Origin: a bacterium
Lineage (GTDB): Bacteria > Patescibacteriota > Dojkabacteria > SC72
Direction: 5' to 3'
NCBI GenBank assembly: GCA_021107795.1
Contig: JAIOSB010000029.1
Span: 1 to 43,039, forward strand
DNA length: 43,039 bases
Part shown: positions 1 to 17,290 of the stretch, piece after piece
Layout of the letters: the number at the start of each line of letters is the position of its first letter
Numbering within the stretch: the first letter of the stretch is position 1
Position numbers and translations under genes: made by a program
The notes under the pieces: model-generated
Seen by the model: the letters and a program-made list of their open reading frames with translations, nothing else
Databases searched by the model: none
What the model was told of the DNA's origin: nothing

Positions 1-3000
1 CAATTTGACCAGTATCTGTTATAACCATTCTCTCACTACTATTTGTATCAAATCTAATAAAGTCCTCATCTCCTGTCTCTTCCACTTGAATACCAGTATC
101 TGAATCACCATCCCACATAGAAGTTTCACCACCAACATTTGTCCAACTCAATGCTCCACTACCATCTGTAATTAGAGCCTGCCCACTTGTACCATCTGCG
201 GTTGGGAAGGTATAAGCATCATTAAATCGAATAGCTCCAGTTGCAACAATCCTCATTCTCTCCAATGAGTTTGTTTGGAAGACAATATCTGTATTAACTG
301 CATACCCTCCTGTTCTCATTATAAATTCGTTTGTTCCACCATCATACACAATCCCTCCACCCTCACTTAGTCCACCATCTCCGTTATAGAAACTAAGAAC
401 AGCATCATTAGCAACCCCATTAGCTTCAATAATTGCTGAAGTATTTCCTGCCCCTATACTTTTAACATGAAAATTCCCATCTCTATTTGTAGTACCCACT
501 GTTAAATTATTAGCAACATGTACTTCTCCTCCCATAATCCAAGTCCTGTCATTGACAGAATCAAAAGCTAAACCAGCCATACTAGGATCAGACCCCGGTA
601 AATCAGATGGATTATCAATATTAAAGTAAGCACTTACATATCCATTATCCATCCAATGTAATTCTCCGGAAGCATTAATAAACATCCTCTCAACACCAAG
701 AGTATCAAATCTAATGATATCTTCATCTCCAGTCTCTTCTACTTGAATACCAGTATCACTATCTCCATCCCAAAGAGCAGTAGCACTACTAGAACCCCAA
801 CTCAATGCTCCACCACCGTTAGTCTGTAATACCTGTCCGCTAGTCCCATCTACTGTAGGAAAAGTGTAAGCACTGTTAAAGGTAATCGCACCACTACCAG
901 TAGCATTAGCAAGATGTATACGAGTAACTCCATTAGTCCTAATATCCAAAACATGATTGTCGTTCGTACCAAATACTCCTCCCTGAGAAAACATGTTCCC
1001 GTGCTGTCTCCAAGCACTTGTTCCTCCACTAGCAATCTCAGTCCAAGCATCATCTAATGTCCCAGTTTTAATCCACAAGTGAGTACCTACTACAGCCAAA
1101 GAACCAAGAGGAGCTGGGTAACCTGCTGTTGGCGCTTCATCAATAGAAACAAGATCAAAGTAACTACCCGGTCCGTTCTGAATCCTCACCACTTGATGTG
1201 GATTGAGAGCCTGATTACTAACTATATGAAGGGGAACTGCTGGAGTAGTAGTACCAATACCAACCCTGTCATCACTAGTAAGTCTCATAACTTCTGAACC
1301 ATTAATATTGGAAATAATTGGAGATGTATCAGATGTAAATATATGTAAAGCATTAGCAACCCATCCACTCGCATAACCATTACTACTCATATTCTTCACA
1401 ATTCCAGCGTCCCCCGTAGCACCACCATGCATCACTAAACCTTCTGCCATATCTCCTGACCTAGTTTCTAAGAAAGTATCATAACCATCACCCTCTATAC
1501 CTATAACAAGATCTCCAACAGAAGTCATAATCTGATCACCACTACTGACAATCAAATTACCCATCGTAGTATTGCTTGTTCCAATAGCCACATTACCATT
1601 ACTACCTATTATCATTCTCTCACTACCAAGTGTATCAAATCGAATCATATCTTCATCACCTGTTTCTTCTACTTGAATACCTGTATCACCATCTGTATCC
1701 CAAAGAGAGGTAGCACCACTACCAGTGGATATCCAACTCAATGCTCCACTACCATCTGTTGCCAACACCTGATTGTTTGTACCATCTACATTTGGAAAAC
1801 TGTAAGCATTTGCAAATCGGATACTACCCTGAGTACCTGTTCCACTTGCAACACCTGGTATCAAATTAATATTTCCAGAAGTACCATCTACTACACTACC
1901 TGTTTCAATATTAAGAGCCGTAGTCCCTATTGCCCCTGTTTTATCTTTAGTTGCAAGGCTCAGACCTGCATCAGCTACAATCTCCAATGCACCGTCCTGT
2001 TGATCAATAATCATATCACCATTACTATTCTGTATTGTAAACACTCCAGCATTGACGTAAATAACACGCTCCACCGCTCCACCATCAAACATAAGCATAG
2101 CACCATCATCTATAGTCACATTATCACCACCAGTTGTAGTAGACAAAAGAGTACCAGTTCTACTCCAAGGTCCACCAGTAGTGATTGCACCATCTACATA
2201 TCCCTTATCAACCAAAGATCGATCTACAAAATTAGCAGAGTAATCTTTATCATAAGTAGCTCCTTGAAAGGTAGTATTATCCATCGATATTTCGAACAAA
2301 TTACTCTGGAGCGCTAACGAGGTTTCATTACCAACCCCTCCAACTGTATTTCCCCTAAGAGTTAAAGTTCCTGAATTGTTACCTACAATCATTGCCGCTT
2401 GGAATGTTGTGTTATTTTGTGCATACATCTGAAAAAACCAAGGTTCTATATCAAAACGACTCCTACTTGATACATCATCAGCTATAATTGCAGAAGCATC
2501 ATCATTAATTTCATAATCAATAAAACCATTATGGAAATTTAAACCAAACCCATTAGCGTCAACAACTCTAGCTCCAGTAAGTGTTCCATCAGCAGTATAA
2601 ATGTTGTCACCACTAGCTGTATTCCAACTCAATGCTCCACTACCATCAGTTTGTAAAACTTGCCCGCTAGTCCCATCAGCATTTGGTAAAGTCCAAACCA
2701 AATCAGCTACAATACTATCTGGTGCTTTAAATCCAACATAGTTGGTACCATTAGCAACTATCTCATTAAACACTATTGGTCTTGTAACTCCACCACCTGA
2801 AGGACGTAAACTGAGACGTCCATCACCTATAACCACAGCGTTTGCTTTTATTCCCACATTTCCCATTGTATCTACACCAAGTAACACGTTATCATTTTGA
2901 TCAACAATCATTGAGTCAAATCCAAAATCGTCATGTCCAAAAGCAATACTTGAACCATCAGTTGTGTTCTCTGACATAATTGTACGAGGAGTAGGAGAGT

Positions 3001-16513: not shown

Positions 16514-17290
16514 TTAATCTCCATTTATTCCATAATTATTAATTAATTTCGTCATATCCAAAGAATTGACCTGATGATTTTCATCAACATCGGCTCTTTC
16601 ATCAGAAACACCTCCATCATTTTCTCCCCAATGAGATACTAGATATGTAGCATCCAAAGAGTTCACTTGATTATCCCCATCAGGAGTAGTTACACCCGTA
16701 TACACATCACCACACAAGAGAGGATCAGCACCAACTAGAGTGAAATCTAAGATATTGGTTCCTTCTGCTAAGGATTGGGCTGGTAACATCTTCTTAAGGT
16801 GAGCATAGCCTTTCACTACTACATCATAGACACCCGGTGGGATACCAGTTAATTGAAGATTAGAATATTCTCCATCATTATTGGTAGCAACAGCTGGATA
16901 TGTGTTTATGGCGGTTGTCTCTCCTACATTCCTAACTTCGATAATTGCTAGAGTCGAATTATTCCCAACCGCAGGAAGACGTTTTTCAGGAATTACAGTG
17001 AAGTCAATAAAGACATCACCTTCATCACCGTATAAATATCCGTGTAAGATATTAAAGTTTGCACTATCAGACTCACCAATAGCTAAATCTCCAACTTGTT
17101 GATTCTCTATTTCATAGCCCGCAGAGGATGAGTCTTCACCACCACTATTCCCAGAGTTATCAGGGTCAATTGTGTAATTGGTAGAAGAAGTTGCTCTAAC
17201 TTCACTTTGTATGAAGACCCCTAATAAGAGGACCATTATAGGTGATAGAGCGTATATCATTATTTTTTTAGTTATAGACAGTTTTTCCAT
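16514..17290 (-). CDS. Secreted protein with a C-terminal dockerin-like (duplicated Ca-binding loop-helix) domain
   Basis: Likely start ATG 17290; signal peptide; SSTNYTI...GG..SSSAGYEI....GD...GESDSANFNILHGY N-domain; beta-sandwich (GVYDVVVKGYAHL); GDV...DNQVNSLDATYLVSHWG and ADVDENHQVNSLDMTKLINNYG. Confidence 0.75.
   Translation of the reverse strand: MEKLSITKKIMIYALSPIMVLLLGVFIQSEVRATSSTNYTIDPDNSGNSGGEDSSSAGYEIENQQVGDLAIGESDSANFNILHGYLYGDEGDVFIDFTVIPEKRLPAVGNNSTLAIIEVRNVGETTAINTYPAVATNNDGEYSNLQLTGIPPGVYDVVVKGYAHLKKMLPAQSLAEGTNILDFTLVGADPLLCGDVYTGVTTPDGDNQVNSLDATYLVSHWGENDGGVSDERADVDENHQVNSLDMTKLINNYGINGD

Follow-up and report, generated by a model that had tools for sequence, protein, structure and literature searches.

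Organization of the gene cluster

The window, meaning the whole stretch of 43,039 nucleotides that was analysed, corresponds to positions 1–43,039 of contig JAIOSB010000029.1 (assembly GCA_021107795.1). Its first 17.4 kb is occupied by a cluster of six open reading frames (ORFs), designated P1, P2, P3, P4, P5, and P6, all of which lie on the minus strand. The cluster probably encodes a surface display of trimeric fibre adhesins mounted by a cohesin–dockerin pair, in which P1 would act as the adaptor between a membrane-anchored scaffold with immunoglobulin (Ig)-like repeats (P2) and fibres whose N-terminal domain, here called the NYQG domain, is probably related to that of mosaic adhesive trimer (MAT) fibres. 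Based on the ORF translations, the six genes were located as follows, with lengths in amino acids (aa).

16514–17290, minus strand: P1, secreted adaptor of 258 aa if M25 is the start; the ORF reaches 17362 (282 aa)
14302–16524, minus strand: P2, membrane-anchored cohesin–Ig scaffold, 740 aa (Pfam, hydropathy)
13592–14305, minus strand: P3, N-terminally anchored beta-sandwich protein, accessory, 237 aa
8932–13584, minus strand: P4, fibre with a MAT-like N-domain, a C-terminal S74 chaperone and YadA_head repeats, 1550 aa
5271–8744, minus strand: P5, fibre with N-domain as in P4 and a Cys-rich, non-S74 tip, 1157 aa
2–5266, minus strand: P6, giant fibre lacking an NYQG domain, at least 1755 aa, open at the contig end

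P1 and P2 overlap by 11 nt, or are separated by 16 nt when the start of P2 is placed at M10. An overlap of 4 nt was found between P2 and P3, followed by gaps of 7 nt (P3/P4), 187 nt (P4/P5), and 4 nt (P5/P6). These coordinates agree with the original prediction, made from the sequence alone, of a co-directional six-gene cluster with gaps of 16 nt or less except for one of 187 nt. A hydropathy scan revealed an N-terminal hydrophobic segment in all six proteins, while a second, C-terminal segment was present in P2 only.

Putative dockerin adaptor and cohesin scaffold

The following domains could be assigned to P1.

17015–17191, minus strand: P1 N-motif at the mature N-terminus, made up of three SxNY repeats (aa 34–92; positions 8–82 of 241 of the NCBIfam profile CPR_pilus_PamT)
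16721–17014, minus strand: P1 beta-sandwich, CarboxypepD_reg-like (aa 93–190; weak Pfam match to PF13620, E 0.083)
16517–16720, minus strand: P1 dockerin, two F-hand repeats ending in VNSLD (aa 191–258; PF00404)

The dockerin that had been proposed for P1 scored above the Pfam cut-off (PF00404 Dockerin_1, 31.2 bits against 22.9, aa 228–275 of the 282-aa ORF; 35.2 bits in the genome scan), and the duplicated F-hand segment was visible in the sequence, where loop 1 of the repeat lacks an acidic residue at position 1. The genome scan detected only this one dockerin. P1 belongs to a family of 36 close clusters with a length of about 246 aa, and its close relatives are found in metagenome-assembled genomes (MAGs) named Moraniibacteriota, Patescibacteria group, and similar.

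P2, the gene product next to P1, was divided as follows.

15949–16434, minus strand: P2 cohesin domain (aa 31–192; Pfam PF00963, AlphaFold2 (AF2) and Foldseek)
14845–15948, minus strand: P2 stalk of Big_5-like Ig repeats (aa 193–560; Big_5 at aa 193–310, 31.1 bits; internal repeat by blastp)
14341–14418, minus strand: P2 C-terminal transmembrane helix followed by a KKRK tail (aa 703–728; hydropathy scan and sequence)

When the cohesin was cut out as an isolated domain, it matched PF00963 with 27.1 bits (cut-off 24.1), and 11 of 18 homologous domains matched as well. The AF2 model, built on an alignment of 18 sequences, reached a predicted local distance difference test (pLDDT) score of 87.6. 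A Foldseek comparison of this model with the PDB returned 64 chains at E ≤ 1e-3, and all rows listed were cohesin modules or cohesin-containing entries; the top matches had E values of about 1e-6 and template modelling (TM) scores of 0.6–0.7, for instance 6kge_A with E 8e-7. The domain was also the single match of the genome to the cohesin profile A1. Together with the C-terminal helix, these results bear out the earlier claim of a cohesin in a membrane-anchored P2.

In P2, the Ig stalk is joined to the last beta domain by a Cys/Glu-rich linker with CPxC and EEC repeats (aa 563–590, about 14750–14840 of the window), which may be a metal- or disulfide-stabilised hinge. P3 matched CarbopepD_reg_2 with 24 bits, below the cut-off, and the sole lead given for it by the protein atlas was a CarboxypepD_reg cluster (0.83).

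The pair resembles the cellulosome (Clostridium thermocellum scaffoldins; 6kge, 5k39) in having a two-F-hand dockerin on a secreted partner and a cohesin beta-sandwich on a cell-bound protein. Cellulosomes are anchored via SLH. The window differs from the cellulosome in its single cohesin, the lack of enzymes and carbohydrate-binding modules (CBMs), the C-terminal membrane helix, and a trimeric-fibre cargo that would be held non-covalently by a second module instead of being fused to the dockerin. The description of the system as cellulosome-like therefore suits the cohesin–dockerin plug, whereas it does not extend to enzymes or multiple cohesins, as one cohesin and no enzymes were found. None of the six cluster proteins carries a glycoside hydrolase or CBM recognised by Pfam, and for the glycoside hydrolases this had been stated in the original prediction. 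A mini-cellulosome for polysaccharide breakdown, to which the presence of one cohesin and one dockerin could point, is extremely improbable given this result, the occurrence of only one cohesin and one dockerin in the genome, and the placement of the dockerin on a non-catalytic 258-aa protein.

Non-cellulosomal cohesins (Archaeoglobus 2xdh; Clostridium perfringens 2jh2, 2w1n, 2vo8) are likewise found outside plant-cell-wall breakdown, and modules of this kind, both cohesins and dockerins, were reportedly surveyed by Peer et al. in 2009. TMEM132 is not known to have a dockerin partner. The TMEM132-type architecture (PMC6030884) has the same order of cohesin, tandem Ig domains and transmembrane segment as P2, but is eukaryotic.

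Fibre proteins P4, P5, and P6

Three features could be located in the two complete fibres.

13075–13509, minus strand: P4 NYQG (MAT_N-like) N-domain (A2/A3 profile; AF2 beta-sandwich)
8235–8669, minus strand: P5 NYQG N-domain (A2/A3 profile; 92% identical to that of P4)
9229–9384, minus strand: P4 Peptidase_S74 intramolecular chaperone with SDIRLK motif (Pfam PF13884, 51.7 bits; genome scan)

The N-domains of P4 and P5 start with NYQG at the mature N-terminus, and the motif NYQGKLKD ... ATPRIPLSSNPYA can be read in both translations. Behind the signal peptide, 204 aa of the two proteins are 92% identical, while their C-terminal tips are unrelated. YadA_head repeats were recognised by Pfam in P4 (95 bits) and weakly in P5 (26 bits), and no family was assigned to P6. 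The tip of P5 is Cys-rich and of a non-S74 type, with a weak match to DUF1554 (E 0.039). AF2 predicted the fibre N-domain as a beta-sandwich (pLDDT 77), for which Foldseek found no match in the PDB at E ≤ 1e-3. The original prediction of a conserved NYQG domain in the fibres held for P4 and P5; it did not hold for P6, whose N-terminus is different and Cys-rich.

The MAT fibres of Bdellovibrio, which are candidate host-recognition devices, have a signal peptide followed by a conserved, beta-rich N-domain (about 130 aa), a shaft that is long and trimeric, and an S74 (SDxxxK) or other tip; in the excerpts consulted, the authors state that what the N-domain binds to has yet to be identified (PMC10769870). 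The profile Bdello_MAT_N (NCBIfam NF053851) matched 28 of 33 homologous N-domains at E ≤ 0.01 (best E 2.4e-12), and P4 and P5 were accordingly regarded as probable relatives, in bacteria of the candidate phyla radiation (CPR), of the Bdellovibrio MAT fibres. As in the MAT superfamily, an S74 chaperone with SDxxxK (P4, SDIRLK) occurs beside an alternative tip (P5, Cys-rich), so that P4 and P5 match the two tip subtypes described in those excerpts (PMC10769870). Unlike in Bdellovibrio, a candidate partner of the N-domain is encoded beside the fibres. The S74 chaperone and the family suggest that the fibres are trimeric. A scan with Bdello_MAT_N of the four genomes behind loci L133, L135, L138, and L140 gave nothing, and the controls likewise remained without matches. 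The labels Bdellovibrionales and Micavibrio of MAGs of 0.9–1.1 Mb were not trusted, and no cross-phylum claim was made from them. As far as the consulted passage goes, a 2026 review names no anchor for MAT fibres.

As a CPR bacterium, the organism would lack an outer membrane. The YadA_head repeats of P4 and P5 are like those of the YadA-family trimeric autotransporters, but Pfam did not report the anchor barrel of that family and an outer membrane is not expected. A trimeric autotransporter was rejected, as Pfam gave YadA_head with S74 for P4 and YadA_head for P5, and no YadA anchor barrel. No LPXTG motif was found in P4–P6, and no anchor domain, including the YadA barrel, was recognised by Pfam in P4 and P5. 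Pfam and hydropathy thus concur with the earlier observation that the complete fibres carry no autotransporter barrel, LPXTG, or transmembrane anchor.

Peptidase_S74 and tail-fibre-like repeats could also be expected if the fibre genes were prophage or tailocin remnants with unrelated neighbours. All three fibres, however, carry signal peptides, the N-domain probably belongs to a cellular MAT family (28/33), and it is found in phylum-wide synteny with pilus or cohesin genes, as described below. Furthermore, no phage family appeared when Pfam was run on the six cluster proteins and on ten other ORFs from the window, four of these ten being without a match; the scanned ORFs gave an ATPase of the type IV secretion system (T4SS) coupling type, SpoIID, a UvrD-type helicase, an Rce1-like protein, and LamG. 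A phage origin is highly improbable on this evidence, and a cellular fibre display is favoured.

The triple SxNY motif

The P1 repeats, SSTNYTID...GG...SSSAGYEIE...SDSANFNIL, lie directly behind the predicted signal-peptide cleavage site. They follow the pattern S-x-N-Y/F-x-I/L with Gly-rich turns between them, which was conserved in alignments A4 and A5. The match of P1 to the PamT profile was confined to this stretch (profile positions 8–82, 36–38 bits against a cut-off of 240), and P1 was the only match to that profile in the genome, where no pilin matches were found. In Candidatus Mycosynbacter amalyticus, PamT has been proposed to form the tip of the Pam pilus (2026 preprint, PMC13278184). 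Excerpts of that preprint mention a co-localised 'tail fibre-like protein' without linking PamT to a fibre, and the words dockerin and cohesin have 0 occurrences in it (PMC13278184). An identification of P1 as PamT (NF058579) was rejected, since it reached 36–38 of the 240 bits required and lacks the truncated Ig acceptor domain; only the N-terminal module, the first ~55 mature residues of P1, is common to both. The mount of P1 also differs, being a dockerin and not a pilus.

A profile of the motif alone matched 1846 clusters at E ≤ 1e-3 among 1.84 billion protein representatives. Among the best 150 matches, the motif started at or before residue 46, just behind the signal peptide, in 136. Pfam was applied to 121 of the 150 listed motif proteins (28 short ones of 83–154 aa and P0030, already included in A4, were left out) and assigned a dockerin to 7, Laminin_G_3 to 7, and fn3 to 5, while most were without a known domain. 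In a sample of 401 genomes of the phylum, full PamT scored above the cut-off in 8 genomes, and matches to its N-terminal part occurred in 89, on proteins of varied length.

Model of the adaptor–fibre joint

A complex was modelled from three copies of the P4 N-domain (aa 29–170) and one copy of P1 aa 34–95, each with its own alignment. The interaction prediction score from aligned errors (ipSAE) was 0.76 (runs 0.83, 0.76, and 0.74), compared to 0.02 for the best of three controls and 0.00–0.02 for both kinds of control. Of 80 solved complexes, 58 attain this score mark, as do 2 of 110 mismatched pairs; the calibration applies only roughly here, as user-made alignments and three copies fall outside the calibration of the tool. 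Contacts, about 300 in number, agreed by at least 91% between runs, and the pLDDT of the partner was at least 67. Recall of a solved complex is unlikely because the N-domain has no similar fold in the PDB. The capture of the NYQG fibre N-domain by the adaptor N-motif, as had been proposed, is consistent with this model.

In the model, one P1 chain (34–91) contacts the same residues in all three copies, namely 9–18 (the NYQG strand), 71–80, and 98–118, a segment that comprises the IGVKV strand as well as the DGEATPRIPLSSNP loop. Predicted error was lowest for pairs of the third repeat with copy 2 and of the second repeat with copy 1. Five invariant fibre positions (Q12, F76, E107, P110, and R111) were all located inside the interface, to which about 40 of the 142 residues contribute.

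The same geometry can be read in another way, with P1 as an assembly factor at the membrane that templates or proof-reads fibre trimerisation, after which the fibre is released or passed to another anchor. The placement of three pseudo-repeats of one chain on three protomers would suit a template, as would the occurrence of the motif on lectin and fn3 proteins, which are not obvious anchors, and the existence of split motif and dockerin genes. P4, however, already has a trimerisation chaperone at its C-terminus (S74), the modelled interface is large with its ~300 contacts, and the fusion of the motif to a pilus-tip protein in Pam operons suits a lasting joint. An assembly factor is judged quite unlikely, and P1 is preferably regarded as a lasting adaptor of the displayed fibre.

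Distribution of the dockerin–cohesin pair

A P1-like dockerin protein was present in 54 of 221 genomes of the class to which the window belongs, and the P1 beta-sandwich was kept together with the dockerin in these 54. In all 19 of the class loci fetched, the gene directly after the dockerin gene encodes a cohesin–Ig–transmembrane protein. The same adjacency was found in 8 of 11 adaptor loci of a separate set of genome contigs, and in 2 of the other 3 the contig stops at the adaptor gene. Binding of the P1 dockerin to the P2 cohesin is suggested indirectly by the adjacency in 19/19 loci and the single copy of each domain in the genome. In loci L034 and L035, dockerin and cohesin are both divergent, which would fit a co-evolving pair, although two cases prove little. 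In a MAG labelled Saccharibacteria, a 579-aa protein (L146:175–1911, plus strand) carries the sandwich and a cohesin-profile domain fused in one chain, which are separate in the window.

The dockerin protein also occurs in a form without the N-motif, missing the first ~60 mature residues of P1. It then either has a length of ~210 aa and a membrane segment at its N-terminus, or has ~339 aa with another N-domain. In this form both partners look membrane-bound.

Linkage of the motif to fibre genes

Among the class loci with an N-motif adaptor, a NYQG fibre gene was adjacent in 3 of 4, with the contig ending in the fourth, compared to none of 15 loci without the motif. The full order, namely motif–sandwich–dockerin protein, cohesin protein, one further gene, and fibre, recurs in another part of the phylum (family f82; L122, L123) and in MAGs named Moraniibacteriota, and a fibre was present in 7 of the 11 genome-contig adaptor loci. 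Split adaptors were observed in L147 (G571:C12) and L148 (G547:C1), where a 210–265-aa SxNY protein and a separate sandwich–dockerin protein are neighbours; a protein in the cohesin position comes next, followed by a NYQG fibre in L147. Furthermore, true PamT operons (G346, G428; L127, L128) have a NYQG fibre as the last gene, and their PamT proteins match the motif profile. Pam operons resemble the cluster of the window in having such a fibre as well as in the motif.

Using the NCBIfam PamT profile, the motif was found in 89 and the fibre N-domain in 113 of the 401 genomes (both 74, motif only 15, fibre only 39, neither 273). The motif profile A5 gave both in 90, motif only in 16, fibre only in 23, and neither in 272. 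A fibre N-domain was located within 10 kb on the same contig for 53 of 98 motif matches with the PamT profile and for 66 of 125 with A5. By the PamT profile, a fibre-linked motif occurs in at least 49 of the 89 motif-bearing genomes. By our own estimate, chance would yield a linkage of a few per cent at this distance, assuming genomes of ~0.9 Mb with one or two fibres. The fibre list used for linkage held 150 rows of 154 matches, and G102 for this reason counts as motif only under A5 though the genome table shows a fibre match. One genome, G368 (unpublished), has both features on different contigs, and without it the number with both drops by one. Co-occurrence of the adaptor motif with NYQG genes, an expectation drawn from the window sequence, is thus seen in these counts (74 with both against 15 and 39 with one alone) and in the recurrence of the gene order in other lineages.

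Since the same N-motif is carried by PamT in other CPR lineages, the motif can be viewed as a socket for the fibre, with the remainder of the protein serving as the mount. The triple SxNY repeat could then tentatively be proposed, at a level of belief that does not quite reach an even balance, as a general socket for MAT-type fibres on interchangeable mounts, namely the PamT pilus tip, the dockerin–cohesin pair, and perhaps lectin domains.

Evidence weighed against the display system

Several observations weigh against a fibre display by P1 and P2, or against the general socket. The cohesin is borderline, as a Pfam scan of full-length P2 reported no cohesin and a six-frame PF00963 scan of the genome returned 0 matches, missing even P2. 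Profile A1 searched against PDB sequences found nothing at E ≤ 0.01, with two unrelated proteins as its best matches and cohesins making up 5 of 9 at E 0.22–1.1. The cohesin call on P2 was retained in view of its fold and of the score obtained with the isolated domain. On the fibres of the window themselves, Bdello_MAT_N was weak (P5 E 0.0077–0.012, P4 E 0.092), far below the 60-bit cut-off, and P6 has a Cys-rich N-terminus and no NYQG domain. Homologues of P3 were found in G208, L141, and L142 only, and P3 is not conserved with the system, which is a further caveat. The complex model measures model confidence, and it supports adaptor–fibre binding without showing it.

The genomic association is also imperfect. 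A motif without a fibre match occurred in 15–16 of the 401 genomes and a fibre without a motif match in 23–39. The motif is not always tied to a fibre, because in two loci of the window's own family (L151, G134:C5; L152, G200:C3) a 411–415-aa motif protein heads an operon of three pilin-sized proteins of ~350–400 aa with no fibre within 19 kb. The Laminin_G_3 (7/121) and fn3 (5/121) proteins that bear the motif are no obvious mount. A5 was partly built from loci picked for a nearby fibre, and the PamT-profile counts are cleaner for this reason. Related genomes are not independent, which would overstate the association, and counts were therefore given without a P value.

The pair itself mostly occurs without fibres. 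The form lacking the N-motif was present in 50 of the 54 class genomes having the pair, and in the 15 motif-less loci inspected (L037–L051) the flanks were housekeeping genes with an adjacent fibre in 0 of 15. The dockerin–cohesin dyad would appear, from this distribution, to have another, older basic role, and fibre display was regarded as a derived use of an older module because the pair is mostly found without fibres. These data, along with the position of the complex model outside its calibration and the NYQG-less P6, could also be taken to mean that the pair serves the envelope in general and has nothing to do with the fibres, these being secreted or held otherwise and the modelled cap being an artefact of pairing exposed beta-strands. 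Such an explanation is considered unlikely: the fibres accompany the N-motif form only (3/4 against 0/15), linkage with an independent profile extends over the phylum (53/98 within 10 kb), and the controls of the model remained at 0.00–0.02 while the invariant fibre residues lay inside the modelled interface. A cohesin–dockerin-mounted fibre display is accordingly retained as the probable function of the cluster.

Proposed mechanism and significance

In the proposed display system, the C-terminal helix of P2 would sit in the cytoplasmic membrane with its single cohesin at the far end of the Ig stalk. The secreted P1 would plug its C-terminal dockerin into this cohesin, and signal-peptide cleavage would leave the three SxNY repeats at its N-terminus. 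One P1 chain would then cap the base of one fibre trimer (1:3), each SxNY repeat forming a beta-strand against the NYQG strand and the E-x-x-P-R loop of one protomer. The cargo would be P4 or P5, with their different tips pointing outward; P4 would fold with its S74 chaperone, which it probably sheds. The genome seems to use the cohesin stalk in place of a pilus, in line with the lack of a pilin match. Surface exposure and host binding would be the expected properties of the fibres.

The novelty would lie in the combination and in the 1:3 cap, as each single part is of a known kind. In the literature searches made, judged by title or abstract, nothing was found that links cohesin–dockerin to CPR fibre adhesins or to a triple-repeat adaptor, or PamT to a fibre. 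For the way in which CPR bacteria hold their host, the window offers a concrete joint, a ~55-residue three-repeat cap predicted on the fibre base at 1:3. The cohesin–dockerin plug would here mount adhesins in place of enzymes. In Southlakia, a Saccharibacterium, a dockerin protein was essential in transposon sequencing, and in the excerpts consulted the authors guessed at glycan binding (PMC10633639); adhesin mounting may explain why such a protein is essential in epibiotic growth. If the motif is a general socket, the Pam pili of CPR bacteria would be tipped with a tail-fibre-like adhesin, a first candidate would be at hand for the partner that anchors the MAT N-domain and has long been sought, and the host range of an episymbiont could be changed by swapping fibres on a constant socket.

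Assembly and genomic context

The genome consists of 666,718 bp in 30 contigs with an estimated completeness of 98.65%. Judging from the MAGs that contain the close relatives of P1, it belongs to a CPR (Patescibacteria) organism, which is very small and probably depends on a host. Contigs of 4 runs, belonging to 2 studies, cover the stretch at 100% identity, and no difference was found. Single contigs of runs X1 and X2 cover 13453–17500; among the contigs, no single piece covers the whole stretch, and the fibre region is split at repeats. The fibres share near-identical modules, such as ...LTDTP.AYT.GS.LFTSGS.VTEDN..., and the breaks of the assemblies in the fibre region were attributed to these common modules. 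A 55-nt module of P4 (window 11193–11247) is joined, in contigs of three runs, to sequence continuing beyond window position 1. Contig C25 opens inside an ORF (3–6041, plus strand, 2013 aa) that ends in Peptidase_S74, and a P6 homologue of more than 2866 aa is present in a genome of the same genus; P6 probably continues on C25, giving a fibre of ~3,770 aa.

Seven datasets were listed as containing the stretch, all of them DNA from marine sediment metagenomes of 2 studies; three of the seven may represent the source sample, and no RNA dataset was among them. A promoter and terminator scan of 1–18200 was uninformative, with 50 promoter-like sites against 58.7 expected and 12 terminator-like sites against 7.3.

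Directly upstream of the cluster, an 839-aa ATPase (18127–20646, minus strand) with T4SS-DNA_transf and HerA-type (DUF87) domains was identified, which is probably the coupling protein of a CPR type IV secretion system. The stretch 32001–34000 has a G+C content of 0.318 against ~0.38 and a reversed GC skew, and contains a lone plus-strand ORF of 401 aa (32419–33624, plus strand), to which Pfam assigned no family; the stretch may be of foreign origin. Two paralogous proteins of ~780 aa (35053–37383 and 37566–39905, both minus strand) each matched Laminin_G_3, a ConA-like lectin domain, with 83 bits, and have acidic poly-D/E linkers, hydrophobic ends, and no SxNY motif.

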